IMG/VR virus record: IMGVR_UViG_2663762783_000006
Coordinates: 25,743 to 89,742 of that record
Length of the DNA: 64,000 nt
Reading direction: 5' to 3' (one strand)
DNA from: a virus
Taxonomy: Duplodnaviria > Caudoviricetes
The notes below the pieces were generated by a model, which was given only the letters and a program-made list of their open reading frames with translations, ran no database searches and was not told where the DNA came from. The translations under genes and the position numbers were made by a program. Shown here in pieces: positions 6,309 through 53,718 of the stretch. Each line of letters begins with the position of its first letter. Within the stretch, counting starts at the first letter, position 1.

Positions 6309-7705
6309 TCGCTGGTCTCCACCGTCACGCTCAGGCTTTTGGCGGACACATAGCGATAGCTTTCGGGCAGAATCGTGTCGGCGTCAGTGACCTTGATATA
6401 GATATCGCTGGTCTCGGCCTGGCATGCCTGAATCTTGGACTGCAACAGGGTGCTGATTTTTCGGTACAGCACGCGCCCACGCCCGCGCTGCGCCCAGGCG
6501 GTATTTTCACCGTACTGGCCTAGAATCTGCTCGATAGCAGCCTGCTTAACGGCTGAATCGTCATAAATGGACGGCACTTGCAGCGTAATCTGAACAGGTA
6601 TCTCTACCCTCACGGCGGGCACGAACCGCACACGGTAGGAATCATCAGCGCGCGTAATCACCCGCTTGATTTCAGCCTCAAGCTCGGCTTGCTCTACGCC
6701 ATCCTTGAGCGCAGCCACAAACAGCGTGTTCATATTGTCCACACTTGGCGAACGAACAGTCTCCTCAAGGCGCTCATTCCAGACCGACAAAAAGCGGAAG
6801 GTGCCGATGTTCTTACGAATCAAGACGTCGAAGTTGCCCAGAAACACAGCAGCGTCGTCATACAGTGACGGATAGCTCGTGATCTCGCGCAAGGTCTCGA
6901 TAGTCATAGGGTCGGAGCCGACGCTGACGACTGAATCTAGCGTGACTTTTGCGCCGGAGTCGTAAGTGGTCGTTGCGTACTCGAACACAAACGGCGCGCC
7001 AGCAGACAGGGTAATGTTGCCCTCGGTCGATATGACCGTAATGCTCAGCACTTCATTGATAGCAGGCTGATAGCCGCCGATATTGGCCGCACCAAAGACG
7101 ATTTTAAGGGTTCGGTTCTCGTCGGTCTCAAGCGTAAAGCTGCGCGCCCCAAGCTCGGTATTTGTCAGGCTTGGCTGATAGGTAAAGTCATTACCAAACT
7201 GGTCAGCTACCTTGATTTCAACGATGCTGCCGGTCTCTGGCTGCGAGACCGGAATCATATAAAACGGCTTGCTGGTCGTGACCGTATGCGCCGTGACCGT
7301 CTCGACCTGCTGCACCGTCTGCACGGTTGCTGTGCCATTGGCGGGTACGTCAGCGCCCACCGTGACGACATGAACACGGCCCTGCGGATCAAGCACGCGA
7401 CGGCCTGCCTTTACGCTAAAGGCGGTCGCGGTAACGTTCTGAATAGCCAGGCGGGCGCGGTACGGCTGGCCCAGCGGCAATACGCCCTTGGCTGCCGCAT
7501 CGGCCAGCACCGTGACGTCGCGGACCTTATCGAACGGCTCACTGGCCTGTACATCCTGCTCTTGCGAATGCAGCGACAGCATGGCCGACATAGCGCCCAG
7601 CAGCGCCATTAGACGCGGGTCTTTTGCCTGGTACAGCAGCGCGGCTTGTGGGTACTCGGAAATAGCACCCTCCGCTAATGTTAAATACTCGGCCTTTGTC
7701 TTCAC
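6305..7705 (-). CDS. Baseplate wedge subunit (gpJ/T4 gp6-like)
   Basis: 466 aa; TVLADAA.KG.LP and I.FG....G..P....I....TEG motifs; gene order gp25-like > J > I-like. Confidence 0.7.
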   Translation of the reverse strand: MKTKAEYLTLAEGAISEYPQAALLYQAKDPRLMALLGAMSAMLSLHSQEQDVQASEPFDKVRDVTVLADAAAKGVLPLGQPYRARLAIQNVTATAFSVKAGRRVLDPQGRVHVVTVGADVPANGTATVQTVQQVETVTAHTVTTSKPFYMIPVSQPETGSIVEIKVADQFGNDFTYQPSLTNTELGARSFTLETDENRTLKIVFGAANIGGYQPAINEVLSITVISTEGNITLSAGAPFVFEYATTTYDSGAKVTLDSVVSVGSDPMTIETLREITSYPSLYDDAAVFLGNFDVLIRKNIGTFRFLSVWNERLEETVRSPSVDNMNTLFVAALKDGVEQAELEAEIKRVITRADDSYRVRFVPAVRVEIPVQITLQVPSIYDDSAVKQAAIEQILGQYGENTAWAQRGRGRVLYRKISTLLQSKIQACQAETSDIYIKVTDADTILPESYRYVSAKSLSVTVETSE

Positions 7706-8010
7706 GCCACATTCCCCAAACTATCGATTGACAGCTGAGTCACGCCCAGGTCGATAACAATGCGCAACGTCTCCTTGCCGACGTTTTCCGCCCACAAGTT
7801 GAGCTGCCCTGGCGGAAACTTGGCCAGGATCGGTACGTCTTCGGTCAGCTTGGCCAGGAAGGCGTCAGCCAGGGCCGTGTTTAGCGGCTGCTGGAGGAGG
7901 TCCTTTAAGTTGCTGCCGTAGCCGCTGCCCAGGTAGCCATCGACGGGAGTGCTCAGCCAGTGGCGGATCATGTCCGCCACGTCATTGATTGTTAGTGTAC
8001 TGCTCGCCAT
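7702..8010 (-). CDS. gp25/GPW-like baseplate wedge (sheath initiator) protein
   Basis: HWL.TP..GYLGS.YGS.L..LL..P motif, 102 aa, upstream of J-like gene. Confidence 0.65.
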   Translation of the reverse strand: MASSTLTINDVADMIRHWLSTPVDGYLGSGYGSNLKDLLQQPLNTALADAFLAKLTEDVPILAKFPPGQLNLWAENVGKETLRIVIDLGVTQLSIDSLGNVA

Positions 8011-13870: not shown

Positions 13871-14977
13871 TCAGGTCGTTGCCTTGGCGGCAGCCAATGC
13901 GGCTTGTGCTTGTGCCTCGCTAAAGCCAGCAGAGCGCAGCATGGCGATAAACTTGGCATCGGGTATCTTGGCCTTGGCGGCGGGCTTTTTCGCAACCTCG
14001 GCGCGCGCAGCGGCTCTGGCAGCCAATTGCCGCTGGTAAGACGGCTGCGCCTGGCGCTGCGCCCGTTTCTCGCTGCTGGTTTTGATATTGCGTCTGCGCG
14101 AGTCTTCCTTGCGCATGGCCTCGGCCATCTTGCGCTGATCGGCAACTTTAGCGATATCTTTCGTATGGGATATGTCATCCCTAAACTTCTGAACAACGCG
14201 CTTAGCATAGGCATTGAACGTCGCAGAATGCAGGATCACTTGCATTACCCTCAGCGCGTGCTTGCAGGCGACGCCAGACAAGCCAGGGTTGGTTATCTTC
14301 GGAAAAGACAGCTCAGCCCGACCATAATTATACTCGGCCTGCGTCGCTACATAGCGGAAGAAATACTTGTGGCGGGGGCAGCTACACTCGAAGCGCAAAC
14401 GTCCACCCGTCATCTGCTTAATAATCTTGTCAGACTTCACTGGCGAAGCCACGACCGCGCCGAAGTCCAAGAACTGGACGTTTACATTGTGGTGCGTGAA
14501 TTCAGAATCAGCACTTGCATTAGTATAGAAGTGGACAACCAGTGACGTACCCTGCCCTCCTCCCTCAGTCATGGCGGCGTAATGCGTCGGGTTAGCCATG
14601 TGAATCTCTCGATTCGCGCGCTGCCGGTCAGCCTTCCACGACATGTCTATGACACTTTTCGCTCTTATGCCGCCATAGATGCGCTTAGACTTAGCTTGAT
14701 TCTTAAGCTGTCTCACGTTATGCGTGAAGGTCTTTAAATCATCTGCCGTGATGATCTTAGGTTTTCCCCCAAGCGTCGTAAACAGTGCTCGGGAGAAACT
14801 ATAATCGCCAGCAATCTCATCGGGCGATATTAGCGTATTGCCTTCTCGGCCCTGGTCGGACTGGCGTTGCCTTACCTCCTCAGCGAAGGCGCGGATTGAT
14901 TGCGCGCGAACATTACGCGCTGGCGGCAGGCTCTCGGGGCGAATCTTGGGCACTATTGGGCACCTTATCAGAGGCAT
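13871..14977 (-). CDS. SWIM-type Zn-finger morphogenesis protein
   Basis: FECSC.RHKY.FRY...NP.L.GVACKH motif. Confidence 0.6.
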   Translation of the reverse strand: MPLIRCPIVPKIRPESLPPARNVRAQSIRAFAEEVRQRQSDQGREGNTLISPDEIAGDYSFSRALFTTLGGKPKIITADDLKTFTHNVRQLKNQAKSKRIYGGIRAKSVIDMSWKADRQRANREIHMANPTHYAAMTEGGGQGTSLVVHFYTNASADSEFTHHNVNVQFLDFGAVVASPVKSDKIIKQMTGGRLRFECSCPRHKYFFRYVATQAEYNYGRAELSFPKITNPGLSGVACKHALRVMQVILHSATFNAYAKRVVQKFRDDISHTKDIAKVADQRKMAEAMRKEDSRRRNIKTSSEKRAQRQAQPSYQRQLAARAAARAEVAKKPAAKAKIPDAKFIAMLRSAGFSEAQAQAALAAAKATT

Positions 14978-16256
14978 AGCCCCAGCGTTTGCCGTAGGCT
15001 TTTTCTTTTCTTCCCCTGATAGCGTCGAATATGCTGTACCTGGCTGAGCTTTCCAGACCTAGCGACAACGCCGCATGCTCGACCGACTTATAGACTTCTC
15101 CGGTATCCAAGCATTTTACGGGACGGCAACGCGACTCATTGCGAAGGTCAGCCAGGGCAGCAAACGAATAGCTATCAAAGACTTTAGGTGCCTCATTTTC
15201 CGCCAGATAGCGCCAGCTATAACCTAGCGCTTTCCGACCTTTGCTTATAGCGCTAGGTATCGCTCCAGACTTCTCCAAGCCAAAAGCCGCATGCGCCTCT
15301 CCCGCACTTGCAAAGACCTTATTAAGCTCCACGCACAGCACTGGCTTGTGTGGCTTTACATAATCCCTTTTCCGGCCCTTAGAAGGCTTGTCCGTGCGAA
15401 CCTTAGCAGGATCAATGCCGCGAGCGATAAGCTCCTCAGCAGTCAGGTAACGCCACTGCAAAGCGGACCTAGTTGGCTTGCCGTCAAACTGCTTGTTAAT
15501 GACGGACACCGATATACCTTTAGCCTTGGCGGCATCGGCCACGCCAGGAAAATACTCTCCTGTCGTTATGCAGAATAATGGCCTTTTGTTTACGCCGACT
15601 CCGATTTTGGCCAGGTGCTCACGAAACGACGGGCTATTCTCCAAGCGAGAGCGCATTAAGGCCGACTGCCGCCTGGAATGCTTTTCGCGGTATTCAGGAT
15701 CAGCAAAAAGACGCTTGAATATCTTGCCAGACTGAACGGCCATCTTCTGCCTGTATTCTTCATCAAGCCATCTTGCCTTAAGGCGCTCGGCAGCACTGGC
15801 GCGACGCTCAGGGCATTGAGCCTGGCAGCTCATAATTTTCAACTGCGCGGCCCTGTATTCAGGGTCTTTCCAGCGCTCTCGATTCTGAACAGCGCAGCGC
15901 TGGCTATTTCTCTTGCGCCACTCAGGGTCTTTCCAGAAGTCATGCAGCACCTTGGCTACAGTTACCTCAATATTGTATTCAGGCTGGATATGATTAATAG
16001 CCAGCTGCTCAAGGTCTCGTAACGTCTCCCGCTCACACAGCAGCACGATATCGAATTGCATGGCCTGCGCACCATATTTTCGAGCGGCATACCGAAGTTT
16101 CGCATTGTAGTGGTCGCCGCGCGCAAAGTGGCCGCGATGCTCATTTATTCGCTTCTGTATATTGGCCGAACTGCCGATATACATTTTTCCGCTTGGACTT
16201 GTGATCTTGTAAAGACCACAAAGGTGCTTCCTTGCCATATCGAACCTTTCAATCAA
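14913..16256 (-). CDS. Free-standing GIY-YIG homing endonuclease with NUMOD-type DNA-binding repeats
   Basis: GLYKITSPSGKMYIGSS..I.KR..EH, E and YN motifs; three C-terminal K.V.C..tg..f.s...A repeats; lower GC. Confidence 0.85.
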   Translation of the reverse strand: MIERFDMARKHLCGLYKITSPSGKMYIGSSANIQKRINEHRGHFARGDHYNAKLRYAARKYGAQAMQFDIVLLCERETLRDLEQLAINHIQPEYNIEVTVAKVLHDFWKDPEWRKRNSQRCAVQNRERWKDPEYRAAQLKIMSCQAQCPERRASAAERLKARWLDEEYRQKMAVQSGKIFKRLFADPEYREKHSRRQSALMRSRLENSPSFREHLAKIGVGVNKRPLFCITTGEYFPGVADAAKAKGISVSVINKQFDGKPTRSALQWRYLTAEELIARGIDPAKVRTDKPSKGRKRDYVKPHKPVLCVELNKVFASAGEAHAAFGLEKSGAIPSAISKGRKALGYSWRYLAENEAPKVFDSYSFAALADLRNESRCRPVKCLDTGEVYKSVEHAALSLGLESSARYSIFDAIRGRKEKAYGKRWGYASDKVPNSAQDSPREPAASA

Positions 16257-18785: not shown

Positions 18786-20759
18786 TTACGACGCAAGGCC
18801 CAGCGCCTCAAGCGCCGCATTAACGCTCTGCCGTTTGCGGTCTCCCGCTTCCGACTGCACGTCGTTATCAGCCTGAATGTAGTGCGCGCTCTCAAGGAAC
18901 CCAAAGGCGAGAGCGTCCAATAAGTCAGGCGACGGCAAGCCTTCTTTGTGCTTCATTTCATCCTTGCTCATGATCGTCCAGCGACCTTTGTCGTCGAACC
19001 CAAACGGCAGACGTCCACCCTGGTCTAGCAGGTCTTTAGTGTGCTGATCGACGATGCTGATACGGTCCTTTTCAACAGCAAACTTTAGGTGGACGTTGCA
19101 CTGTGCCCGCTGACTGACAAAGCGGTCGCGGTACTCCTTACGGAAGTTCATGTGTCCCCAATTGACCTTGATGATATTGGGTACGCCCAGGCGCTCCAGC
19201 AGCTTGACGAACTGCACGCCCTGGCCGCCAACGTCCACCATCACGGTGCAATTGGAAAGCTCACGAGCATGATGGGCAACCATACCAGCGGCGTCCGTCC
19301 AGTCCCAGGAGTTGGTAAATACCGGAATGCTCATAGCGTCCATTCGGCGCGGGTCTGGCGCTTCCGGCCCGCCCTGGCCAATGACGCGCGCATGAATCGC
19401 AACCGTCTTGTCACGGAACACGCCTGCGCCCACGTCCACCAGCAGCATATTGCCGTAGGGCTCATGCTCGGCAATGACGCGCGGGGCTCCGATGCGGCGC
19501 TCAAGGCTCTTACGCGATATCAGGTACTTGTCGGAGTGCTCAGGGAATCGGCCCTGCACCTTGATCTGATATTCAACGGAATCGCGCCCGCCGTACTCCA
19601 GCATCTTGTCGCGCAGGAACTCCAGCGAGACAAGAATGGACTCTTCGGAATTGAAGATAAGCGCGTTCCAGTTCCCGCCATTCTCCACGCTCCAGGCGTG
19701 GTGCGAGTCATAAAAGAAGCCAGACGAGCGCGTCGGCTGGGAGGCCATCGCAAAGCGGTTGCGTTTGTCTGTCAGAGCGCCTGCGATAACTTTCAAGTTG
19801 GCTTCTGGAATACCCGACGCTTCGTCCGCCAGCCATAGCAGGTAGTTACCGTGTGTACCGGCCATGCCTTCTGGCGAGCCACGCGGCGCAGTACGGCAGG
19901 TCACGAACCAGCGCAGGCCCGCACCCTTGACGTAGACCTTCTTGGCCTTGATCTCGAAGTATTCGGCAATCCAGCCTTGTGCGCCTTGCTCGATCAACTC
20001 CTTAAGGGTTGAAAACTCTTTCCAGATACCCTCTTGCAGTGTCGCAAGCTTGGGCGCAGTCAGGTAGGTGTTCGAATCTTGGAAGCAGAGCATGTGCCAC
20101 AGTGCGATAACGGCAAAGCTGCGCGTCTTGCCAGTGTTTCGCAGGATTGTCCCGTCACCACCCAAAAACCGATGATTGCCGTCTAGGGTAAAACCAAAAT
20201 AGTCACCCTCGCCCAGGCACTCCACTGACTTAATCGGCAGCTCAACAACTCTCGGCTTGCGGCCCGACTCACGCAAAACCCGACGGCAAAATCGCTTACG
20301 GTTAGGGTCTGCCAGCCACTCGGTAACGGTTACTTCTTCAAGCGGATCGTGCAGGCCATTCGCCACGCAAAGCGCGTGGGAAGCATTGACCGTGTGACTT
20401 GTGCCATCTGCATACGTGACGCGGTACATCGTTTCGCGACCGCGCTTTAGCTCGATCACCGTCCGATAATTAATCCCGTCATCAGCCATCAATCGATGGC
20501 CTGTTAGCACATCCTCGACGGCAATAACTGAGCCGTCCGCCTGCATGATCTCAGTCCCAGCCGCAAAGCAGCCGTGGCCGGATGAAACCGTCGTTCTTGA
20601 TCCGAAAGGACTGACGCTATCGAACAGCTCCCACTGCTGGTCAGTAATCGACATGCCGCACACTTCGATGGCGAAGCGGGCAGCATCCAGCGCATAGCGC
20701 TCAGCAAACGCCTTCCAGCGCGGATCGGCGACAAGGGATAACTGTTTCTTAGCAGCCAC
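18786..20759 (-). CDS. Terminase large subunit (P1 PacB-like), intein-containing
   Basis: Walker A SGHG/TGKT split by an intein; Walker B LWLADEASG; SQPTRSSG; nuclease D residues, SPDLLDA. Confidence 0.92.
   Translation of the reverse strand: MAAKKQLSLVADPRWKAFAERYALDAARFAIEVCGMSITDQQWELFDSVSPFGSRTTVSSGHGCFAAGTEIMQADGSVIAVEDVLTGHRLMADDGINYRTVIELKRGRETMYRVTYADGTSHTVNASHALCVANGLHDPLEEVTVTEWLADPNRKRFCRRVLRESGRKPRVVELPIKSVECLGEGDYFGFTLDGNHRFLGGDGTILRNTGKTRSFAVIALWHMLCFQDSNTYLTAPKLATLQEGIWKEFSTLKELIEQGAQGWIAEYFEIKAKKVYVKGAGLRWFVTCRTAPRGSPEGMAGTHGNYLLWLADEASGIPEANLKVIAGALTDKRNRFAMASQPTRSSGFFYDSHHAWSVENGGNWNALIFNSEESILVSLEFLRDKMLEYGGRDSVEYQIKVQGRFPEHSDKYLISRKSLERRIGAPRVIAEHEPYGNMLLVDVGAGVFRDKTVAIHARVIGQGGPEAPDPRRMDAMSIPVFTNSWDWTDAAGMVAHHARELSNCTVMVDVGGQGVQFVKLLERLGVPNIIKVNWGHMNFRKEYRDRFVSQRAQCNVHLKFAVEKDRISIVDQHTKDLLDQGGRLPFGFDDKGRWTIMSKDEMKHKEGLPSPDLLDALAFGFLESAHYIQADNDVQSEAGDRKRQSVNAALEALGLAS
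20136..20570 (-). mobile_element. Mini-intein (145 aa, no endonuclease domain) in the terminase Walker A motif
   Basis: Starts CFAAGT, block B TVNASH, ends YFGFTLDGNHRFL..DGTILRN|T. Confidence 0.88.
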
Positions 20760-25085: not shown

Positions 25086-25825
25086 TACGCAGCCTCCCCG
25101 CTGGAGATGCGCCACAGCTCAAGGGCCTGGCCGACGATGCGGGCCACGTCCTCGCTCGATGCAGTAGCAACGCGCGGCAGATTCTCGCGGGCTTCCTTGC
25201 GGCTGTAGAAGTAGGCCGTCTGCCGGTCGCTCTCAACGTCACGACGAGACACGACTACAGCGCCATGCGCCAGCGTAAAGCAGCACGGCTCGTCAGGCGT
25301 ATGAATCACGCTTTCGCCAATGCGCAAGGTAACGGTGCGGACCTCATCCAGGCCGCAGAACACTTTGAAGCCGACAGGACTGTAGCCCGCCTCGTCCACC
25401 GTCGCCTCCTGGCGGGCATGGCCCAGGCCGCCCAGGTGCGCCACATACGTGGTATCGATAGCCTCGCCACTCAAAACCATGTGCTCATAGCCATAGCGGT
25501 GCGTCTGGATGCAGGCCGTGTTAGGCGCGCGGTCCTCGTTACTGCCAATGGTCAATACAACCTCGGGGCTCAGCAGCAGGCTCAGCATGCCTTGGTCGTG
25601 GAGCTGCCAGGTGTGCTGCTCGGCATTCTCCAGAATCTGGCGAATGTTCTGGCGCGTCACAGCCAGCATTAGCGGCACTAGGTAACGCTGGTCCTGGCGC
25701 TTACGCTTGGCGGCCTTCTTCTCGGCCTTGGTGGGCTTGGGCACGCGCGCGGGGCGTGCCGTAGTCTTGGGGGCAGGAGTGCTGGCAGTATCCAGCAGTG
25801 GAGCGGCGAGAGGCGTGCGGTTCAT
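25085..25825 (-). CDS. Cupin-like hypothetical protein
   Basis: W.LH.QGML, I.THRY...H.VLSG. Confidence 0.45.
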   Translation of the reverse strand: MNRTPLAAPLLDTASTPAPKTTARPARVPKPTKAEKKAAKRKRQDQRYLVPLMLAVTRQNIRQILENAEQHTWQLHDQGMLSLLLSPEVVLTIGSNEDRAPNTACIQTHRYGYEHMVLSGEAIDTTYVAHLGGLGHARQEATVDEAGYSPVGFKVFCGLDEVRTVTLRIGESVIHTPDEPCCFTLAHGAVVVSRRDVESDRQTAYFYSRKEARENLPRVATASSEDVARIVGQALELWRISSGEAA

Positions 25826-36640: not shown

Positions 36641-37327
36641 TTAGGCCATTTTGCGGGGCGGGGCCTTCATCCGTTCTTCCCGCTGGTACAAGGCCAGCTC
36701 CCTGCGCAGCGCCTTGGATCGTTCGCGCTCCTGCTCAAGCGCTTCATGCAGGCTTTTGTTCATACGAAACAGCTCGCGGCGGTCCTGGTTGGCCTTCTCT
36801 ACGTCGCCGACACGCGCCAGCAGAGTGATTAGCAGCCAGGTTTCCCGCTCCCGATTACAGTCCTCCCAGCGCCAGGCAGCCTGCTGGTCACGCAACTCCT
36901 GATAGCCCAGCTTGCGGGCGGCCTTCATCGCGCCAGCCACAACGCGGCAGATGCCGCCAGGGGTTACGTCGATCAATCCCCACCCCTCGGGCAGCTCCTC
37001 GGGCTTAATCAGGCCAGCCGGTGCCATGAAATAGCGCCAGCTGCCCATTCCGCCTGCCTGGCGGTGCGGTTTCTTCTTATCGGCAAGAAAGTCAGAACGT
37101 GAAACCTTTGCTTCGATAACGGTTGAGGCGGTGCCGTCATGGGCCAGGGTGAACCCTATGGCGTCGGGTATCTCGCCGCCCCATCCGCCAGCCACTTCAC
37201 TGACAGCCACGGTACAGTTTGGGCCGCCTGCGCTATTTGCGCGTTTAAGCCACGTAACGGCCAAACTGCATAGGCTGGCATGGGTTAGACCGTGATCGTT
37301 CAATCTGCGCGCTCGCTGGGCCTTCAT
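36641..37327 (-). CDS. MmcB-like PD-(D/E)xK nuclease-fold protein
   Basis: E.PDAIG, IEAKVSRSDFLAD.KKPHR, G..RY..AP.GLI...ELP.GWGL. Confidence 0.7.
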   Translation of the reverse strand: MKAQRARRLNDHGLTHASLCSLAVTWLKRANSAGGPNCTVAVSEVAGGWGGEIPDAIGFTLAHDGTASTVIEAKVSRSDFLADKKKPHRQAGGMGSWRYFMAPAGLIKPEELPEGWGLIDVTPGGICRVVAGAMKAARKLGYQELRDQQAAWRWEDCNRERETWLLITLLARVGDVEKANQDRRELFRMNKSLHEALEQERERSKALRRELALYQREERMKAPPRKMA

Positions 37328-38235
37328 TTGATGTCCCTGAGCATTGCTTTAAGCTCGTCACGGCGCTTTTCCACTTCCAAGCGGCCTTTAAGGGCATTCT
37401 CAGCGGCTTTTTCGTAGATAGCGTCCAGCTTATCGGGATCAAGCACAGCCACTACCTTGGCTTCTTCCGGCTCAGTCAGCTTGAGGATGCGGTACAGCAG
37501 GTCTCGGGCCTTGGTCTGGTCATGGGTCAGCACCTCGATGCCGTCCTTGGTCTGCTTCACGCCTGCATACAGCAGCTGCGCAGCCGGTGACAGGTCGCGG
37601 GTGTCCTTGAGCACCAGGCGGTCGATGCCCTCGCCAAAGCATTCAGGGCAGCTTTCAATCGGCGGCCTGCGTGGGTCATAGCCAATACCGCCTTTCGGGT
37701 CGAAGTCTGGCGGCTCTATCTCGTCACGAATGGCCTTCTTAACGGCCTCCTCGTAGTCGTCCTGGTGCCTTTTGAACTCGGCAGGCTTGAATTGGTACTC
37801 GTGATTCTCGCCATAGCAGTGGCGGCAGCACTCGCGGCGATGCTCGGTCAGTTCGTTAGGATCGGCAAAGGCCAGGCCAACAATGGATTGGAGCGCCCTG
37901 GTGCGTAGGTCCTCGGAGTCGTCGAACATGGCCTTGGTTCGAAGTGCCAGTAGGCGAATGACGTTTACCGTTTTTAACAAACGGCCTCCCAAAACACAGG
38001 CTGAATTAGGCGTCACAGCCTCGAATCCAGCGGCCTGGTAGGCTTTTGTTTGGTTATACGTCTGTAGGTACGCATCCACGAACTTAACGTGCCGTGGGTC
38101 CATGTCAGCGACGAGTATTTGCTCCTCGGTGAGCTTTACCGGCTCTATGGGCGTGGCCTGGGCTTGTGGCTTCTTGGTCGTGGTCTTACGTGGCTTGGGT
38201 TTAGCAGTGGCCTGGCCTGACTTCTTGGCTGCCAT
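37324..38235 (-). CDS. Terminase small subunit
   Basis: FVD.YL...N.T.AY..AG HTH; CRHCYG and CPECFG; KDTR.LS....LYAGVK.TKDG.E. Confidence 0.8.
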   Translation of the reverse strand: MAAKKSGQATAKPKPRKTTTKKPQAQATPIEPVKLTEEQILVADMDPRHVKFVDAYLQTYNQTKAYQAAGFEAVTPNSACVLGGRLLKTVNVIRLLALRTKAMFDDSEDLRTRALQSIVGLAFADPNELTEHRRECCRHCYGENHEYQFKPAEFKRHQDDYEEAVKKAIRDEIEPPDFDPKGGIGYDPRRPPIESCPECFGEGIDRLVLKDTRDLSPAAQLLYAGVKQTKDGIEVLTHDQTKARDLLYRILKLTEPEEAKVVAVLDPDKLDAIYEKAAENALKGRLEVEKRRDELKAMLRDIK

Positions 38236-38487
38236 GTGCATCGATCCTATGAACAGAAAGGGGAGGGTTGCCATGTGTTGCCGCAGACATGGCACCGCTG
38301 GAGATTCACGAATGAACCGGCGCTTCCTGTTTCTTTACCGACGTTGTACGCCCTCAATGAGGCAAGCCAATGCCGCATCGACGTTTTGAGTGTTCGGCTC
38401 GGCTAATACTCGGTCATAGGTGAGCAGGCACACCAGGCAGCCAGGGTATAGCGGTGCCGGTGTGCGCTTTGGCGGGACTTTCCGAGG

Positions 38488-38913: not shown

Positions 38914-39585
38914 TCAGCAATCCTCGTAACGGGACTTGGCAATGGAACGAGCCATATTGGGGTTTGATGGCGTGTCAGTAACAGATACCGACTCCTCAGC
39001 CAGTCGCAGACCGTTCGCCTCTAGCTCCTTGCAGATGTGCTTAATGCAGGAGTCTGACAGCTGATACCTGCTGCTTAAGCCTTCTCGTGTAAGCGCCAGC
39101 AGGTCAGCGGTGCGGTATATGTTTAATCGAGCAAGGAGACGCTGAAAGGACAGGCTTACGTGCAGGTCATGAATAAGCTCTGGCGCTTTAGCGTGGGCCT
39201 TGGCCATATCATTGGGGCTCTCAACGCACTGAGAGGTATCAGCTTTCTGCGCAACGACTGCCAGGGTCTCTACTGCGGTAGATAGCGCCTGCTTGGCTGC
39301 GTCGTGGATTTCGCGAGCTATAGCGCTTTCCATGTGCTCCATAGCGCGACAATAGAAGATCAAGCCAGGCATAGCGGCAGCCAGGGCATTAGCGCGGGCG
39401 CGTTCACTGCCTTGCTCTACGCTGTAATCGCCTGCAATGTATGGACGTGAATTACCTACCTCAGTGTGGCCGTTACTGAATGTCAGCATGCAGCTAACAA
39501 CGGTCGAGTCCGGCCAGACGTGATACTGCTCCTTGACCACCATGCTGGCGGCCAACTCAAGGCTTGGTCTAGTCATGCCGCACAC
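38914..39585 (-). CDS. Gp49/66-family domain fused to an RNAP alpha-CTD-like domain
   Basis: YHVWP.STV..C.L...NG....G.S......Y..E.G...AR.NA; then IHDL..S......L.R.NIY...DLL. Confidence 0.55.
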   Translation of the reverse strand: MCGMTRPSLELAASMVVKEQYHVWPDSTVVSCMLTFSNGHTEVGNSRPYIAGDYSVEQGSERARANALAAAMPGLIFYCRAMEHMESAIAREIHDAAKQALSTAVETLAVVAQKADTSQCVESPNDMAKAHAKAPELIHDLHVSLSFQRLLARLNIYRTADLLALTREGLSSRYQLSDSCIKHICKELEANGLRLAEESVSVTDTPSNPNMARSIAKSRYEDC

Positions 39586-40241
39586 TCCAGTGATTCGCCT
39601 ACCAGGGCAAAGCCGTAATTCTTCATCTTCTGGCGCAGGTACTTGGCTCCCAGCTCGCCCACATAGTCGATGGATACCAACTCATCGAACGTGCAGTTGA
39701 CGATATCGCCCACAGTGAACAGGTCAGCCTTGTGTAGGTTGCCAATCAGGTAGGGGTTCATACCCAGCAAGGCAAAGGTCGTCATGGTAGTGACGGGCAG
39801 CGGCTCTACCGGCTCAGGCTTTACGGGCTCTACCGGCATACGGTCAGCGCGATACAGGTCGCGATTGATCGTGCTCAGGCGCTTGCTCAGCTCGGGGTCT
39901 ACGGTCTTGGGCGTGTTGACTGGTGCGGCAATGGCTGCTTCCAGGTCTTGCACAACCTGGCGTTCGGCTTCCTGGCGTCTCTCGTGACTGCTAGACGGGA
40001 ATCGGAACTCCTCGGTAACGGTTACTACCAGCTCCTCACCATCCTGGCGGGCCTTGGGACCTTTCGGGGTCTTTACGGCAGGTGTATAGCCAAGCTCGGC
40101 GTCGATGCGATCCATCACGCGGCGGGCAGTGGCCAGGATACGGGCCTTATGGGATTTGGCGGTTACGCGCTCGGCTATCTTAATCAGACTCTCTGCGCTA
40201 CTGGTCAATGCAGCCAGTACGGAAGGCTCAAACGGTGGCAT
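39573..40241 (-). CDS. Protein with a C-terminal RNAP alpha-CTD-like domain
   Basis: L.M..YLIGNLHKADLFTVGDIV.....ELVSI..VG..G...L...M...G. Confidence 0.6.
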   Translation of the reverse strand: MPPFEPSVLAALTSSAESLIKIAERVTAKSHKARILATARRVMDRIDAELGYTPAVKTPKGPKARQDGEELVVTVTEEFRFPSSSHERRQEAERQVVQDLEAAIAAPVNTPKTVDPELSKRLSTINRDLYRADRMPVEPVKPEPVEPLPVTTMTTFALLGMNPYLIGNLHKADLFTVGDIVNCTFDELVSIDYVGELGAKYLRQKMKNYGFALVGESLECAA

Positions 40242-40269
40242 TGGTGAATCCCTACGGCTTTGAAAGGAT

Positions 40270-40340
40270 AGGTGCCGGTTACTGCCTCCGGCGAACACAG
40301 GGTAAAAACCCTTGCACAGCAGCCGCTCTATGGCGACTGG
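40270..40340 (-). ncRNA. Short C4-like/tRNA-like RNA module
   Basis: Minus strand ends GCCGGAGGCAGTAACCGGCACC, the same terminal stem-loop type as the C4 module upstream. Confidence 0.4.
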
Positions 40341-40343
40341 ATT

Positions 40344-40463
40344 ATGCAGGGCCGGTACTGAATATCCGGCTTTGCGGGGTTACGTCGTGCGCGGAACTTA
40401 TCGAAACGACTAACCGATTTATTCCCGCTTTCTCATGGCGCATCAGCCTGCGCATTCCTGCAT
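40344..40463 (-). ncRNA. C4 antisense RNA motif (P1/P7 C4-like)
   Basis: Minus strand ATGCAGG-AATGCGCAGGCTGATGCGC-[variable]-AAGCCGGATATTCAGTACCGGC-CCTGCAT matches the C4 architecture as I recall it. Confidence 0.7.
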
Positions 40464-41501
40464 TGGTAGATTGCTTTGGTCGTGCCGATATCGACAGCTA
40501 TTCGGCTTCGGCCTCGGACTTACGGATTCCTGCCTACCTAACCTAGCGCTCGGCGGGCGCATTCAAAGCAATCTCCAATGCAGCCCCTTTCGGGGCGTAT
40601 CGGGATATCGCACCATTCGTTTTCCTGTCCACCCTTGGCCGCTCCAAGGCGGCGGGGTGAATCTCATGTTTCAGGGCATGCGATACCAGGTGTTGCGTTT
40701 CCCTGTCTATTCCAGGGCGTCAGATGCTTTCTACGGGGGCTATGTCCCGTACCTGTCTTGCGCGCAGTGATCTGGCGGGTTTCAGTTCGCGCCAGCTGCC
40801 CAGGAGAATCACGTATTGCCCACTAGCAAATGTGGGCTTTCTGCATCAGGGAGTGTTTTGCGATCCGCTTAAAGATATGTACTTACAAATGATTGATAAG
40901 TAAGTTTGCAAAACACTCTCTGATACAGCCTCGTTAGAGGTCATTACCGCTTAGCGCCAGGGCGCGGCCTTCCCCATCGAATTCCTCCGACCGCGTATGC
41001 TGGTGCGCCGGAGACTTGGCTACAGGTTATTGAACTGTCCGATAGCTTCCATCCGCGAAAGCAGCACAATCAGGCGACCTGTTAAGCGCCCTGCATCCCT
41101 ACAGCCTTGCACACCCTTAACGTGCATCCAGTGTAGTGATTCGCATTGGTTAAGCCGTTTGGCGTTTTCCCACAGAGCCCTGAAACTGCAAGATACAGGG
41201 GTGTCATCAAACGGCTTACCAATGCGCCTTGAGGTGGAATCCGGTCCTCAAGGGCATCAGTCGAGTATCCAGAAGCATGCGACTCGCGCGCGGTCCTTCC
41301 CACCTTCTGACATGGCACCAATCCGTGGTGAGCGCCAGCAACAACGCATTTGGTAGCGAAGCAGCGGACTTGAACCGCCAGGCCAAGGTGATGAGTCCCA
41401 GGCCGCCCATGCCTTCGCATAATTCCTGCATTTGTGAAGTCACTGCGCCCCGTCGGGCTACCAGTCGTGGGAGCGACCAGCTAGTGACCTCACAAATGCA
41501 G
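40458..41501 (-). repeat. Four long hairpin units with C(T)GCAT...ATGC(A)G-type closing stems (40458-40583, 40841-40928, 41142-41226, 41426-41501)
   Basis: Inverted repeats of ~19-21 bp read directly, each enclosing a different 38-85-nt sequence and abutting a short GC hairpin. Confidence 0.8.
41351..41419 (-). tRNA. D-arm-less tRNA-like RNA with CAT in the anticodon-like loop and an encoded CCA
   Basis: Acceptor GCGAAG/CTTCGC, T-arm GGCGG-TTCAAGT-CCGCT, 3' ACCA, 8-nt loop ACTCATCA; no D arm. Confidence 0.55.
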
Positions 41502-41689
41502 CCCCTGTAACGTAGGGGCAACGGCAGGTTCCTGGTGTACGCCTAGAGGTCATGACTCTGGCGATACCGAAGGTCTACCGGCACCATGTATGCTGCGTGG
41601 GATAGTTTGTCCTAGCCCTCTCCACGCCCAAGCTATCTGGCCTTATCCGGCGAACCGGCCCGCGCCAGCAGCGGGTACTCGGTGTAACG

Positions 41690-42382
41690 TTAAGCAAAGT
41701 CTAGGGTTGGCATCTCTAGCACCATCTGGCGCACGTTCTGCGTCACTGAGGTGCGCATACGGCGGTCATAGTCGCCGGTCGCAAGCCCTAGCTCTTTGTC
41801 GATAATCTCGCAGCGCTTACGCTCTCGGGCGATACGCTCATCTGCCTGAGTAATAACCTCAGTCATTCGGTTTACGGCAGTCTGCACGTTGTCAGAGCCG
41901 CGCATGTCATCCACAAAACCAGGATTCAGCTCTTTGATTCGCGCAAATGCCTTGCAGAAGTCCTTGAGGATGACGGCCATCTTTTGAATGTCCGAACGGT
42001 CCTGGCTCTGGCCTTGCAGCGTGATTGCAACCTGCTCAGAGAGCCCATCAGCCCAGCTCTTGTGCGCATCAGCGATTGACGTCGCAATCATGCGCATCAG
42101 GAATGCCTGATTGTTCTCGGTCGGATCAGCCAGCGGGTCATCACTGAGCCCTACCAGGTAATCCAGCGGCACCGCGAACAGCTTGGACATGGCAATCATG
42201 TCTTCCATCTTCGGCAGGCGCTCGCCTGATTCCCACAGCGACACTTGAGTTGGGTTCTTCTGGCCCACTGCAACTGCAACATGAATCTGATTCAAGCCAG
42301 CAGCGCGACGGGCAGCGGTAATACGCGGGCCAATCTGCTGGAGATTAACTTGAATGTCGATTTCTACAGTTCCAGTGTCCAT
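41690..42382 (-). CDS. XRE-family HTH transcriptional regulator
   Basis: RITAARRAAGLNQ..VA..VG.....VS.WESGER.P......MSKLF.V.LDYLVG. Confidence 0.85.
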   Translation of the reverse strand: MDTGTVEIDIQVNLQQIGPRITAARRAAGLNQIHVAVAVGQKNPTQVSLWESGERLPKMEDMIAMSKLFAVPLDYLVGLSDDPLADPTENNQAFLMRMIATSIADAHKSWADGLSEQVAITLQGQSQDRSDIQKMAVILKDFCKAFARIKELNPGFVDDMRGSDNVQTAVNRMTEVITQADERIARERKRCEIIDKELGLATGDYDRRMRTSVTQNVRQMVLEMPTLDFA

Positions 42383-42518
42383 CGTGACCTACATCTCAAA
42401 AAGTGCTCGATTTGTAAGCCAAAGCTTACAGGACACCCCTAAATCTGCTATCGAATTAACATGATAAGGAGGAACTTCTTAATAAATTTATTGTATTATC
42501 GCGCGCGCACGAGATGCG

Positions 42519-43016
42519 TTAGGCAAAGTTCAGAATCTGATTCACTCGGGCGTCAAGTTGAGCGGGCGTCATGTCGGTAGCTCGGTACACGTTGGCCAGG
42601 GCAGCGGTAATGACGTCCTGGTAGATTTTTCCCGCCTCCTCCTCGGTGCATTTGCCAAAGCTCAGCGAGCGGGGCACCAAGCGAACCTGGCCACGGATAT
42701 CGAATACCGGATCGTAATGGCCAGCCAGCACGGTCAGGTTCTTGCGGAACGTCTCTTTGCAGGGCACAACCTTGCGGCCCTTGTACTCCACCTCGCTGAT
42801 TCCAAACTCGCAAAAGTGCTCATAGGCCAGCGTGAAGAGACACATGGTCTTTTTCAGGAACTTGAAGTTGCGGGGAAGCGTCACCTTGCAGCGAATGCCT
42901 GCGCCCGTCTTGAGCCTGGCCAGCTGCTCGATGCCCTCCTGGTCAACAGGACGAAGCGAGCCATCGGCACACTTTTGCAAAACGATTTCCATGCGCTGAC
43001 TACTCCTCTCGCGCAA
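42519..43016 (-). CDS. DUF1367 (NinB/YbcN-like) protein
   Basis: RN.KF..K, FRK.L.V.AG.YD, P.S.SF motifs. Confidence 0.75.
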   Translation of the reverse strand: MRERSSQRMEIVLQKCADGSLRPVDQEGIEQLARLKTGAGIRCKVTLPRNFKFLKKTMCLFTLAYEHFCEFGISEVEYKGRKVVPCKETFRKNLTVLAGHYDPVFDIRGQVRLVPRSLSFGKCTEEEAGKIYQDVITAALANVYRATDMTPAQLDARVNQILNFA

Positions 43017-43024
43017 GTGACTTG

Positions 43025-43288
43025 CTAATCAGCCTGTATCAAGCTCGTGATGCGGTCGCGGATCAGCGGGAACAGGTGCGGGTTCTTGTCCTTCTCGACC
43101 TGCAAGGCGCGCTTTCTGGCCAGGCGGTCGGGCTTCTCCATGACGTAGGCAATCACATAGTCCGCGCGCAGGCTCTCGCCCGTTGGGCAGTACCGTGCCG
43201 TAGGCGCAAAGCAGTTGCGGCAGCCCATGACGTGATTGATATACGGCGTGTGCGCCTCGTCAGCGGTCAAACTTCTTCTAGTGTCCAT
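43025..43288 (-). CDS. Hypothetical protein
   Basis: YINH.M.C..C......YC..G motif. Confidence 0.55.
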   Translation of the reverse strand: MDTRRSLTADEAHTPYINHVMGCRNCFAPTARYCPTGESLRADYVIAYVMEKPDRLARKRALQVEKDKNPHLFPLIRDRITSLIQAD

Positions 43289-43710
43289 GCCTCAGTGCCT
43301 TTCACAGGGATTGCGTAGAACACGCGAAACGGGAATTCATTGGCGGCGACCTTCATCTTGACGTGTGCGTCATCCTCGATAATGGCCTTCGCGCCCTTGA
43401 CGTCATGAAGCTGTAATTCCCCTTCGGCAGTCATGACCAGGAAGTCAGGCTTTAGGTGCGTCCGAGGCGCAAGGCGCAGCGTGATGGCCTCAAACTTCCA
43501 CCACAGGATTGCGCCAGCCAGTTGCAGGCGGGCCAGGTGATTGGCGTACCGCTGCTCTGTCTTGTTCATCTCGCCAGGCGCGAGCCGTCCCAGCGCACGC
43601 AAGCGCTCCTTGCCGGTCACAGCCTTGGCGGGCTTGGCGCTAGCCTTTCCCACGGCCTTGGCCTTGATGGCGGCAAGTTCCGCCTCACTCATGCGCAGGG
43701 AAGTGCCCAT
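43267..43710 (-). CDS. DUF1064-like PD-(D/E)xK endonuclease
   Basis: MNKTE..Y, FE...L.LA......PDF, DVKG, VK.KVAA..FPF. Confidence 0.75.
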   Translation of the reverse strand: MGTSLRMSEAELAAIKAKAVGKASAKPAKAVTGKERLRALGRLAPGEMNKTEQRYANHLARLQLAGAILWWKFEAITLRLAPRTHLKPDFLVMTAEGELQLHDVKGAKAIIEDDAHVKMKVAANEFPFRVFYAIPVKGTEAWTLEEV

Positions 43711-46063: not shown

Positions 46064-47002
46064 TCAGACTCCTGGCTGCTGGCCAAACATGGGCGCATGT
46101 GGGTCGTACTTGGGCGCAGCTGCTACCGGCTCGCGAGAATGCTGGCGCGTAAAGGCTTCGGGGTTCAGATTGATTCCAAGGAAGCGCTCAGTGTGTTCGG
46201 CATCCCTGAAAATCAGGCTTAGGTCGATGTACTTTTTAGCGCCCTTGTACTTATTGCGGGCCATATGGAAGTCGGATTTAGAACAGCCACTTATAGCGCC
46301 TATAACCTGCTCTACCGTGTACTCCTCTAGCGCCTTCTCGATAATCTTTGTGCGCTTGGCATCAAGGCGTGACGTCTTGGTTTCACACACTGTCCGCCAG
46401 TGCTCGAATATCTTAGCAACCAGTGCCTGACGATCCGCCTTTGCCTTGCGCTTAGCTTCAGCCACCTCTGCTTTACTGGCCGCCTTCGATGTGCCGCTAG
46501 GCACATGAGATGTAGTCTCTGTAGATAATCTATGTGTTTTATATGTAGTAGTATCTGTAAGAGCAGTGCAATCTGCCCCGCTGGATGGGGGCAAGTTGCC
46601 CTCATCAGAAGAGTGCAAATTGCCCTTATCGATAGCCCCTACATTGCCCCCACTCGATGAGTGCAAATTGCCCTCATCGGAAAGCAGTGGGTTTTCGAAC
46701 ACAATGGTGTAGAAATTGGTGCGGTCGTGCTTGTGCTTGTTCAGCTGCTCGGCCAGGATCACGCCCTTGTTTTTAAGGGAGGCCATTGTTCGCTTAATGG
46801 TGTCCTCGCCCCAAAAGGGGAACTGCTTTTGCCACTGTGAAAGGGTGTTATAAATCCACTTCCGGCCCTCATGCTCATAGCCTGCGTCAGTCTCTACCAG
46901 CCAGTAGCACAGCTGCTGCAAAACGATGGCTTCATTCAGCCCGATGCGTTCGGCCAGCTGAGGACTGATAACCAGGGGGCGGAATTTGAATAGCAGACTC
47001 AT
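46064..47002 (-). CDS. Phage replication initiator (lambda O/DnaD-like wHTH)
   Basis: LA..IGLNEAIVLQQL.YW, GRKWIYNT...WQ.QFPFW; internal 8-aa repeats. Confidence 0.85.
   Translation of the reverse strand: MSLLFKFRPLVISPQLAERIGLNEAIVLQQLCYWLVETDAGYEHEGRKWIYNTLSQWQKQFPFWGEDTIKRTMASLKNKGVILAEQLNKHKHDRTNFYTIVFENPLLSDEGNLHSSSGGNVGAIDKGNLHSSDEGNLPPSSGADCTALTDTTTYKTHRLSTETTSHVPSGTSKAASKAEVAEAKRKAKADRQALVAKIFEHWRTVCETKTSRLDAKRTKIIEKALEEYTVEQVIGAISGCSKSDFHMARNKYKGAKKYIDLSLIFRDAEHTERFLGINLNPEAFTRQHSREPVAAAPKYDPHAPMFGQQPGV
46520..46680. repeat. Putative replication origin: five 24-bp-period iterons (G)TGCAAATTGCCCTCATC-like, next to an AT-rich tract
   Basis: Repeats at ~46566, 46589, 46613, 46637, 46661 inside the initiator gene; AT-rich 46520-46560. 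Confidence 0.7.
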
Positions 47003-47469
47003 GCTTTTCGGCCCTCCCAAGTAACGGAGGAGCCTTTCGAGAGATTGCAAGCACCGCATAGCGTCTGGAGGTTATCCAGCGTAGTTTCGCCACCTAGCGA
47101 CTCAGGATGCTTATGGTCGCAGTGCAGATTCTTGTAATCGCCGCAAGCCACACAACGATAAGCATCGCGCTCAAATACCTGGCGACGCAGAGTTCCATCG
47201 ATTTTCTTCTTACGGTATACGGCAGGTGTACTAGAGAAATTGGAGCCTAGCTGCTCGATCAGAATGGCCACCAGTTCGCCGCAATTGCCATCCCCTTTGC
47301 GAGCTACCGTAGAAAGCAGCTCCTGATTGTCCTCAAGGAATTCGCGAAACAGCGATAACGCCTGGTTTTCTGCCTGCTTGACGGCCTCGAAAAGTTCCGA
47401 AGGCTCGGTATAGGTGACGCCCTGAAATGTTTGGACGAAAGACGACTTGCGTAGGTGGCTCATCGGCAT
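46999..47469 (-). CDS. HNH endonuclease
   Basis: VFERD.YRCVACG....LHCDHKHP.S.GG.T.LDNLQTLC..CN..K. Confidence 0.88.
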   Translation of the reverse strand: MPMSHLRKSSFVQTFQGVTYTEPSELFEAVKQAENQALSLFREFLEDNQELLSTVARKGDGNCGELVAILIEQLGSNFSSTPAVYRKKKIDGTLRRQVFERDAYRCVACGDYKNLHCDHKHPESLGGETTLDNLQTLCGACNLSKGSSVTWEGRKA

Positions 47470-52596: not shown

Positions 52597-53718
52597 TCAC
52601 CAGATATAGCGGGCAAGGTCGCTACCACGCAGGGACGCATAGCGAGCCAGTAGACGCGGATCACGATGGCCAGTGATTCGAGATATCAGCACGGCATCCA
52701 TTGTTGTCCGCTCAAACAGTCTGCATACCGCCTCGTGCCGCAGGTCATGAAAGTGCAAGTCGGCACACTCCGCCGCCTCGAATATCCGCGCAAACTGAGC
52801 CGATATCCGTGCCGTCGTGCGCTTGAGACTTTTGGCGCTCAAGTCTCCATCCCACCAGGGGAATAACGGGGCGTCGTCGCTGCCCTCGTGGCGCTCCAGC
52901 AGCTCGCCCATGACCTGCATGGCGACCGATGAAAGCGGAATCTGGCGCTTATCCCCGTTCTTAGTCTGATTTAGGTAAACGGTACGCCTGGCCATATCTA
53001 CCTGGTTGGGCGATAGCGTATACATCTCGCGCAGGCGCATGGCCGTCTCTAACGCCAGCTTAAACAGCGCTTCCAGATAATCACGGTGCGGCAGCACTAG
53101 CGGGCGCTGGCGTCCGGTTGCCGTCTCGCCGTCCAGTATCTCGTGAACACTCTCCTCCTCTTTAGCGTCCAGCCTCCTGTCTCGCGGGGCGTCAGTTCGG
53201 GCCGCCTTCCCCTTGCGCGCCAGCACGCGACCGTCAGCCGCGTTATAGGACGCATAGCGCTTGGGCAGCTCGCGCAGCGGATTGCCTGCCAGCCCTCCCC
53301 GCTTTACGCTCCAGTCCAAGCACCGCGCCAGTGCGCCCACGTAATGACGGATCGTAACCGGCGCAAGCACGCGCTCGTGCTTCATGCCTGCTACCCACTG
53401 CTCAGCCCATTCGTATGTGAGTTCATCCAGTTTGAGCGCACCCTGCTGGCGCTCGATGCCATGCAGTAGCGCTTGATCCGACTCAGGCATTGCCACGGCT
53501 TCGATATAGCCTTCGATCACAGCGCCCAGCGTAGCGGCCCCAAGCCGCGCTTTAACCTCTGCCGGTATACGCCCCTTGTCTAGCTCTGCCTCGGTGCGAG
53601 CGCACCACTCTGCGCCCTCTCGTTCGGTCGCAAAGCTAAAGCTAAGTGGCTGGCCTAGCAGATGCTTGCGGCGAATGATGAACTCCCAGCGGTTGCCACG
53701 CTTACGCTTTGTTGCCAT
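52597..53718 (-). CDS. Tyrosine recombinase/integrase (Rci/HP1-like)
   Basis: LALETAMR, TKNG..R.IPL, FHDLRHEA, ITGH......RY. Confidence 0.92.
   Translation of the reverse strand: MATKRKRGNRWEFIIRRKHLLGQPLSFSFATEREGAEWCARTEAELDKGRIPAEVKARLGAATLGAVIEGYIEAVAMPESDQALLHGIERQQGALKLDELTYEWAEQWVAGMKHERVLAPVTIRHYVGALARCLDWSVKRGGLAGNPLRELPKRYASYNAADGRVLARKGKAARTDAPRDRRLDAKEEESVHEILDGETATGRQRPLVLPHRDYLEALFKLALETAMRLREMYTLSPNQVDMARRTVYLNQTKNGDKRQIPLSSVAMQVMGELLERHEGSDDAPLFPWWDGDLSAKSLKRTTARISAQFARIFEAAECADLHFHDLRHEAVCRLFERTTMDAVLISRITGHRDPRLLARYASLRGSDLARYIW

Follow-up and report, generated by a model that had tools for sequence, protein, structure and literature searches.

What does a phage keep in the leader of its late operon when no credible gene is found there? 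The question arises from a stretch of 64,000 nucleotides (nt) of a tailed-phage genome (Caudoviricetes; IMG/VR record IMGVR_UViG_2663762783_000006, positions 25,743 to 89,742; this whole stretch is termed the window), in which a prophage with a lambdoid-type gene order has a gap of ~1.45 kb (40242-41689, minus strand) directly downstream of a helix-turn-helix (HTH_3) regulator gene. Our analyses show that the gap is an untranslated minus-strand row of structured RNAs, i.e. four stem-closed modules, a tRNA-Met-like RNA and a canonical member of an RNA family, here named R1. We favour, with a probability of roughly 55%, the reading that this row is an array of tRNA-shaped scaffold RNAs, transcribed together and processed by nucleases, in which the interiors can be swapped, its processing and function being what we infer from the sequence.

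Four stem-closed modules and a tRNA-like RNA

A first-pass annotation of the window, made by inspection of its letters, had described 1.4 kb without a credible open reading frame (ORF) and, within it, four inverted repeats (A-D), each preceded on the minus strand by a small G+C hairpin. All four repeats are where they had been placed, with stems of 19-22 bp and interiors of 36-85 nt, and each has its hairpin. The gap holds five ORFs of at least 100 residues, both strands counted, but these run across the stems, and none of the seven gap ORFs tested gave a Pfam match. The G(G)AA sequence that had been proposed to follow every stem is present as GAA after A and D, whereas B is followed by AAA and C by AAU.

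In the 5' to 3' direction of the minus strand, module D (41426-41501), with its G+C hairpin directly 5' (41502-41518), has a 19-bp stem including one G.U pair and a 38-nt interior comprising two small hairpins. In the stem of module C (41142-41226; hairpin directly 5' at 41227-41254), an A bulged from the 3' arm separates 9 bp from a further 10 bp, and the ends are CGCAUUGG/CCAAUGCG. The stem of module B (40841-40928; hairpin directly 5' at 40929-40940) has 21 bp, of which position 4 is a U.G and position 10 an A.C, and encloses an A+U-rich interior; that of module A (40458-40583; hairpin directly 5' at 40584-40595) has 9 bp, a bulged A and 11 bp, with its interior at 40469-40573. Compared with 200 shuffles of the hairpin plus module, or of the module alone, folding z-scores range from -4.75 to -8.1 (D with its hairpin, -7.15; C, -6.19; B, -8.14; A, -4.75). 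The four 'caged' modules thus share a plan, i.e. a small hairpin and a stem of ~20 bp that is irregular at position 10 and encloses a variable interior, with a conserved stem base, CUGCAUYGG/CCRAUGCAG.

A chance origin of the four stems is excluded by a scan of the whole 5,395,279-nt genome for stems ending in CTGCAT...ATGCAG, with one end mismatch allowed. The scan gave 73 hits of at least 13 bp, of which three were of at least 19 bp, all at this locus, the best stem elsewhere having 18 bp; module C was not caught because its ends are CGCAT/ATGCG. Searched against the genome, the 1551-nt region gave no match but its own and has no second copy. No DNA match for the ~1.55-kb region was found in isolate phages or plasmids, and 400 genomes of the family gave a match of 31 nt only. 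At gathering scores, Rfam finds nothing in the whole window. A search of viral contigs with the pattern GGCTGCATCGG-N20-50-CCGATGCAG returned seven stretches, which look like chance occurrences, since all are without a long stem.

Related loci were found via the HTH protein (10 relatives at 40-52% identity, which were aligned and then used on viral, genome and metagenome collections). Loci anchored by HTH homologues of 34-52% identity carry the same modules downstream, on the gene-sense strand, with four in L008 (identical to L020), four plus a degenerate fifth in L018 (identical to L019), two in L021, one in L017 and short forms in L015, L016 and L032. In nine metagenome loci with HTH homologues, a strict scan found no module, and a repeat finder found the short L016-type hairpin in L032 only. 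The consensus is a small hairpin ending RGG, followed by CUGCAUYGG(AGAG)...(CUCU)(A)CCRAUGCAG. In 15 modules, the arms of the same module pair over 14-23 positions (mean 19.9), compared with a mean of 8.9 for 206 chimeric arm pairs, which is about the length of the shared base only, and each of stem positions 13-19 shows 3-5 standard pair types. On these alignments, the stems appear to be selected as helices, with inner stems that covary and a 9-bp base that is conserved. The irregularity 9 bp from the base also recurs: 5-7 modules, according to how they are counted, have a bulged A there in the 3' arm, and 3-4 have an A.C mismatch. The proposal that structured RNAs, conserved in scaffold and variable inside, form a modular array, for which covariation across related phages had been suggested as a check, is thus borne out, in that the stems covary, and both the number of units and their content vary between relatives.

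Variation is also seen among near-identical relatives, represented by contigs from two DNA sequencing runs (X4 and X5) that are 95-99% alike in the flanks and, being of low depth, are used for presence only. In both, module A and its hairpin are swapped for other sequence (132 to 213 nt; 227 to 327 nt), with one breakpoint of the replacement lying inside a conserved end. In X4, the inner stem and interior of module D (41438-41488) are heavily changed, with the outer 12 bp and the tRNA-like RNA kept; in X5, a T to C change at 41440 converts an A-U pair to G.U on the minus strand. Such exchange of cargo hints at selection on the interiors. A third contig, X7, covers 40468-40726; its run was guessed to be RNA and may be DNA, and nothing is drawn from it.

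The tRNA-like RNA, a D-arm-less tRNA(Met, CAU)-like molecule (41351-41418, minus strand), begins 7 nt after module D, which it had correctly been said to abut. Its parts are an acceptor-type stem of 6 bp, an arm of the anticodon type with the loop CUCAUCA, a canonical T arm (GGUUCAAGUCC-type) and a 3' end ...UACCA. The RNA is below tRNA thresholds: ARAGORN finds no tRNA gene in the window, and the best Rfam match, the only relevant one at E <= 10 in 40100-41900, is to tRNA-Sec (16 bits, E = 8, 41356-41418). The folding z-score of the piece alone (-1.3) is not significant. It does, however, have a 75% BLAST match to L016, where ARAGORN calls a 68-nt tRNA-Met(CAT), as it does for the homologues in L015 and L032. 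The 68-nt D-arm-less form is conserved in these loci (L015 4690-4757, L016 5915-5982, L032 1519-1586) as in the window, and may be either a decoy or a functional armless tRNA. In L008 and L018, true tRNA genes (Thr, Met, Asn, Gly) lie between the modules on the same strand, and a tRNA or tRNA-like sequence follows a module after 13-14 nt, compared with 7 nt after D in the window.

R1, a widespread RNA family, and its link to the module stem

The RNA that follows module A (40341-40466, minus strand) is a member of a widespread family that is without an Rfam entry, i.e. R1. Its architecture comprises a closing helix (helix P1, to be distinguished from phage P1), an invariant 20-nt hairpin, a variable domain and a second hairpin, with the loops of the two hairpins (loops 1 and 2) forming a kissing interaction. 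In the window, helix P1 pairs AUGCAGG (40463-40457) with CCUGCAU (40350-40344), the invariant hairpin occupies 40438-40457 and the second hairpin 40351-40370. The 20-mer of the invariant hairpin (40457 down to 40438) is exact in more than 120 IMG/VR contigs among the matches listed and, at E <= 10, is found in 180 isolate phage records, the hosts including Klebsiella, Pseudomonas, Escherichia, Salmonella, Burkholderia and others. Hundreds of phages of gamma- and beta-proteobacteria, by the host labels in their records, hold R1.

An exact complement of the 6-8 nt preceding the 20-mer is present in 79 of 118 distinct occurrences, at 34-168 nt downstream of the 20-mer start, where by our own estimate chance would give ~4 of 118, and a near-invariant second hairpin stands immediately before this complement. 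An alignment of 50 sequences is 93.4% paired, compared with 83.0% in shuffles, although the figures for the closing helix are inflated because the alignment rows were chosen by that complement. Loop 1 (GCUGA) pairs with loop 2 (UCAGC) in 97% of the cells of this alignment, and compensatory changes occur in L016 (GCCGA with CGGC), in module A (GCCGA with UCGGC) and in hairpin 1 of phage P1 (GCACA/UGUGC). The modelled fold gives R1 a tRNA-like topology, in which the variable domain takes the place of the anticodon arm and the loops of the two hairpins are paired.

A covariance model built from the 50-sequence alignment scores the canonical R1 of the window at 63.9 bits (E = 1e-16) and the interior of module A (40469-40573, minus strand), a diverged R1 with a compensated loop-loop pairing, at 30.6 bits (E = 1e-6); its matches in the window are on the minus strand only. 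These two elements bear on the earlier assignment of a C4-type RNA following module A, together with a second C4-like module. A conserved RNA is indeed present there in two tandem copies (the interior of A and the element after A), but the C4 label does not hold, since the Rfam C4 model (RF01695) has no match in 40100-41900 at E <= 10. C4 is also unmatched in the HK620 leader and, at E <= 1, in a 5-kb stretch of the phage P1 ban leader. The R1 model, run on the whole phage P1 record, matches the ban leader only and thus finds nothing at c4.

Elsewhere, the model finds two full-length R1 copies in the L018 locus (three matches over the whole contig), one copy in L016 and one in PS-1. HK620 has R1 at 16093-16188 in its late leader, between pR'/qut and the terminator tQ, and phage P1 has two copies (69497-69600, 69758-69883), which follow a dicF-like region and two tRNAs in the leader of the ban operon. 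A diverged R1 (29 bits) lies in the dicF-dicB spacer of the Qin prophage of Escherichia coli K-12 (NC_000913 1649453-1649582; L180 1154-1283). In enteropathogenic E. coli (EPEC) E2348/69, the dicF-dicB spacer is the sole match of the model, and no PasD locus was mapped there. The HK620-type R1 is present in 107 of 5426 RefSeq E. coli genomes and, among the 25 matches listed, is unannotated but for one hypothetical protein. Nothing in Rfam 15 matches the canonical R1 of the window or of the HK620 leader, and our literature searches found no paper containing the R1 sequence.

In the phage P1 record (AF234173), the two tandem R1 copies are on the ban sense strand (L166 2498-2601, 2759-2884), antisense to the predicted genes plp and upl, which may be mis-annotations over RNA genes. 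The HK620 R1 variable domain (L164 1519-1552) matches tRNA-OTHER and tRNA-Ser annotations in Vi01-like Salmonella phages; R1-like variable domains and odd tRNA calls may therefore overlap in other phage groups.

With respect to its genomic context, R1 occurs in non-coding stretches, with a median gap of 269 nt to the upstream ORF, and has diverse neighbours, the 92 downstream proteins falling into 77 clusters. In a sample of these neighbours, Q-like antiterminators or CI-like repressors are upstream, with holins, an N-like protein and unknowns downstream. A tRNA called by ARAGORN lies within 1.5 kb on the same strand for 18 of 121 R1 occurrences. The variable domains are kept within R1 groups and differ wholly between them. 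Two contigs (L151 and L162) have a near-consensus promoter, TTGACA-17-TACATT, ~50 nt upstream of the 20-mer, ending ~12 nt before helix P1, such that R1 in these contigs would be the extreme 5' end of the transcript.

The modules and R1 appear to be related through their helices. In L046, a canonical R1 is closed by a module-type stem of 18-19 bp that shares the base of the modules and has an A.C as position 10, and modules adjoin R1 in L049, L096, L115 and L116. In L018, a module encloses a tRNA body (7629-7753, 34.1 bits) that has 68 nt in place of the anticodon arm. Since the module stem holds a diverged R1 in module A, a canonical R1 in L046 and a tRNA body in L018, it is, as judged from these sequences, an extended R1 closing helix able to hold differing interiors. 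The wider L018 element (7614-7767) has intact acceptor, D and T arms, with the acceptor stem prolonged by 13 module-stem pairs; as modelled, it resembles a tRNA scaffold of natural origin loaded with a cargo.

The 3' end of the last module overlaps the 5' strand of helix P1 of the next R1 in the window (AUGCAG of module A), as in L016 and L018; as folded, the overlapping module and R1 helices could not both form on one uncut molecule and would thus be mutually exclusive. Alternative pairing of neighbouring modules was considered as a general reason for the 9-bp base and was set aside, because real overlap exists at the A/R1 junction only. Module-specific variants (module C of the window and the third module of L018) covary, by eye, inside their own module and not with neighbours.

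Proposed processing and the alternatives

According to the reading that we favour, the array would be transcribed as one RNA together with the flanking genes, and its long stems would be cut by a double-strand endonuclease of the RNase III type, with RNase P and ordinary 3' trimming completing the tRNA and tRNA-like units. The products would be stable small RNAs, in which paired ends and a tRNA-like shape protect the swappable interior. The geometry of RNase III sites is present, i.e. double-stranded RNA of ~20 bp (19-22) between units, including between tRNAs in L008 and L018. Because interiors are exchanged between near-identical relatives, our leading guess is that they act in trans, as base-pairing regulators or decoys; we rank a cis role in read-through below this, and a relic last. 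A more specific proposal, which we regard as possible but hold only tentatively, is that the array represents a portable RNA cage, derived from the R1 closing helix, whose swapped cargoes act in trans in phage-host or phage-phage conflict. The 9-bp base, the bulged A and the small hairpin in front would then together form a processing and stability cassette, the cargoes being a tRNA body, R1/STnc100-like RNAs and others.

Several observations weigh against the favoured reading. The R1 model has no match to modules B, C and D at E <= 10, and three HTH-bearing relatives (L036, L041 and L042) have no modules. The strongly conserved 9-bp stem base is, to our knowledge, not typical of RNase III sites. 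Compared with their surrounding 6 kb, the variable domains of 80 elements have no excess of complementarity (8.9 nt versus 9.1 nt in controls). None of the sequencing runs listed with this sequence is recorded as RNA. The wobble pairs give 26 G.U to 6 A.C under a rule that favours G.U, but 10 to 6 under a symmetric rule, with four of these six A.C at the conserved position 10. This signal is modest, and the strand is assigned chiefly from the direction in which the tRNAs of relatives, the tRNA-like RNA, R1 and the flanking genes run.

Of the alternatives, a cis-acting leader device, which would act on polymerase or Rho (by put-like antitermination or as an anti-Rho element) or control late-gene read-through by alternative pairing, seems to us rather unlikely. 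R1 does occur in the leaders of antiterminated operons (lying between a Q-like gene and a holin gene or between a CI-like repressor gene and an N-like gene, and in the phage P1 ban leader), and the promoter just upstream of helix P1 in L151 and L162, and the doubling of the AUGCAG that closes module A as the 5' strand of helix P1 (likewise in L016 and L018), would both fit such a device, as would extreme sequence conservation if the partner were a conserved host machine. However, a cis signal needs neither tandem copies nor a long, diverse variable domain; many R1 phages encode Q- or N-like proteins too; and the put paradigm, HK022, lacks the 20-mer, even with three mismatches, in positions 20000-40751. 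Two particular forms were tried and rejected, namely an attenuator with a downstream terminator, since terminator-like sites are not enriched downstream of R1 (13 of 104, compared with 16 of 104 upstream), and a boxA-type nut site as a general feature, since a boxA-like motif is present in 18 of 104 R1 loci only. We likewise consider it unlikely that the RNAs are specifically trans-acting anti-defence decoys or antisense guides, built on a scaffold with a specificity domain under diversifying selection. No target has been found for them: there is no excess of cis complementarity, and a simple test of the antisense idea within 3 kb, the first-pass annotation having suggested target prediction, was negative. 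The link of R1 to the Rfam family STnc100 is sub-threshold (33-34 bits for two diverged R1 copies; gathering score, 47 bits), the window has no STnc100 match at E <= 10, and in EPEC E2348/69 the R1 model matches the dicF-dicB spacer alone. What speaks for decoys or guides is that interiors are swapped or rewritten in relatives that are 95-99% alike in the flanks, that the variable domains, although kept within R1 groups, differ completely between them, and that the two diverged R1 copies also give a score on STnc100, which, like PasD, is described as a prophage small RNA.

That the modules and tRNA-like RNA are relics of a decaying tRNA cluster, kept by drift or as passive stabilising hairpins, is in our view very unlikely. 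Decay would fit the number of true tRNAs, 2-4 in the relatives and none in the window, the tRNA-like RNA with its missing D arm and its score of 16 bits, and the several relatives that are without modules; on the other hand, the stems keep 19-22 pairs via many compensatory changes across distant phages, the position-10 irregularity and 9-bp base are conserved, and the 63.9 bits of the window R1 are comparable to the scores of intact phages. Still less probable are DNA-level elements, either attC-like single-strand hairpin recombination sites or mobile repeats of the MITE (miniature inverted-repeat transposable element) or REPIN type. The architecture is attC-like in that the paired base is conserved, one base is extrahelical and the top is variable (24-113 nt), the module is swapped as a unit in relatives, with a breakpoint inside a conserved end, and in L016 modules alternate with possible ORFs. 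The core sites of integron attC are RYYYAAC/GTTRRRY, and the module ends, CTGCATYGG/CCRATGCAG, are not such sites; no recombinase was seen other than an ordinary phage integrase at a distance of 11 kb (52597-53718), and no credible ORFs separate the modules of the window. Mobile repeats would be hard to reconcile with a genome that has no other copy of the region and no other stem of at least 19 bp. More generally, the arms differ between copies and yet remain complementary, what the modules enclose is RNA genes (R1, a tRNA body), and no PHROG match was obtained for the ORFs of L016. Finally, the idea that the region encodes short peptides only, raised by a 37-residue ORF starting right after module A and one of 112 residues right after module D, can in practice be set aside, because the ORFs pass through the conserved stems, the tRNA-like RNA and R1, have no Pfam matches, and lie where conservation is in pairing rather than in reading frame.

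Likeness to known RNAs and the genomic setting

The favoured reading, of a processed array of scaffold RNAs, has several partial precedents. C4 of phages P1 and P7 and CI of P4 are small phage RNAs cut from longer transcripts, as is proposed here, and one study describes C4, CI and M3 as RNase P substrates (PMC5499578); by likeness, the paired ends of the present units may serve as an RNase P handle. They differ in that R1 is elsewhere in phage P1 (69.5-69.9 kb, in the ban leader) and in that no cis targets were found. The M3 RNA of phi80 was considered as a relative and rejected, being annotated as an oop homologue elsewhere in the phi80 genome.

The tRNA cluster of T4 includes the stable species 1 and 2 RNAs. 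Like this cluster and the dicBF operon, the array would have untranslated units in one transcript, with tRNAs beside non-tRNA stable RNAs and with excision of the RNase III, E or P type. In the case of dicBF, one report describes how DicF is excised by RNases III and E from the polycistronic transcript of Qin (10.1101/2023.04.14.536235), and a diverged R1 sits between dicF and dicB. The array differs from both in that a stem of ~20 bp, with a common 9-bp base and a bulged A, closes every unit, in that the interiors are interchangeable, and in that its processing is predicted from sequence.

RNase III processing stems are found in rRNA operons, at the intercistronic sites of T7 and in the lambda N leader. 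The stems of the array are alike in having about two helix turns and an internal irregularity and in lying between the units of what would be a polycistronic transcript, but differ in that the 9-bp base is conserved in sequence and in that the interiors are large and structured; cleavage here is a prediction. Compared with tRNA, R1 has the same order of helices, i.e. closing stem, arm 1, variable arm and arm 2, and arms 1 and 2 are likewise in contact at their loops; unlike tRNA, it has no D or T loop sequence, no score with tRNA models, five Watson-Crick loop pairs and a closing stem without a free CCA end. Engineered tRNA scaffolds have reportedly been used for RNA expression by Ponchon and Dardel.

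One source describes STnc100 and PasD as prophage small RNAs, PasD being Hfq-bound and having seed regions (10.64898/2026.05.13.724894). R1 resembles them in being prophage-borne near Q and holin genes. The second phage P1 copy and the K-12 spacer, which score 29-31 bits with the R1 model, reach 33.4 and 34.4 bits with STnc100 (RF02076; cut-off 47); STnc100 has no match in the window (E <= 10), HK620 or the first phage P1 copy. On the basis of these two sub-threshold scores, R1 may belong with STnc100 in one group of prophage small RNAs, as a remote and far bigger branch.

R1 is thus a very widespread and sharply conserved phage RNA, hitherto unannotated in the records examined, which is present in phage P1 and HK620 and, diverged, in K-12, and which may be a common RNA scaffold used by phages. 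Given its tRNA-like layout with a variable arm, its function is directly testable in model phages. The caged modules show a route by which such RNAs can be multiplied and diversified within one leader and, if their stems are nuclease-processing cassettes, would be a natural counterpart of engineered RNA-scaffold expression systems.

The genes around the gap are in a lambdoid-type order, read on the minus strand. An O-like replication gene (46064-47059), a junction resolvase (43267-43710) and NinB (42519-43016) precede the HTH_3 gene (41690-42382; 230 residues; matches to Pfam HTH_3 and to PHROG regulator families), with a dUTPase gene between the O-like and HTH_3 genes. The HTH_3 gene, directly upstream of the array and after the junction resolvase and NinB, occupies the Q position of lambdoid phages; with this gene at the Q position and late genes beyond, the gap has the late-operon leader position of lambdoid phages. 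A tblastn search of isolate phages with the HTH_3 protein gave no match. On the minus strand of 39900-42500, neither a sigma-70-type promoter nor a terminator was found, which agrees with read-through transcription without proving it. The first gene downstream of the array is an orphan ORF of 222 residues (39573-40241, minus strand), the product of which has no relative but itself among 5.8 billion proteins, none in viral contigs and no Pfam or PHROG match; a gp49-like ORF, a 140-residue ORF and the small terminase subunit (37324-38295, minus strand) follow. The PHROG phage integrase (52597-53718) is on the strand opposite to the late genes, and the Erf and exonuclease genes share its strand.

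In some relatives, a DNA-binding protein of 90-100 residues (PHROG_379) is encoded after the HTH gene (L008 5765-6040, L018 5754-6026, L021 5671-5943, L017 708-1010); the window is without this gene and has ~170 nt of non-coding sequence there instead (41519-41689). A homing-endonuclease-like ORF (14913-16256, minus strand; GIY-YIG-type PHROGs) lies amid the structural genes, and a large-terminase-like gene (18786-20759, minus strand) is ~17 kb from the small terminase gene, a spacing that is unusual.

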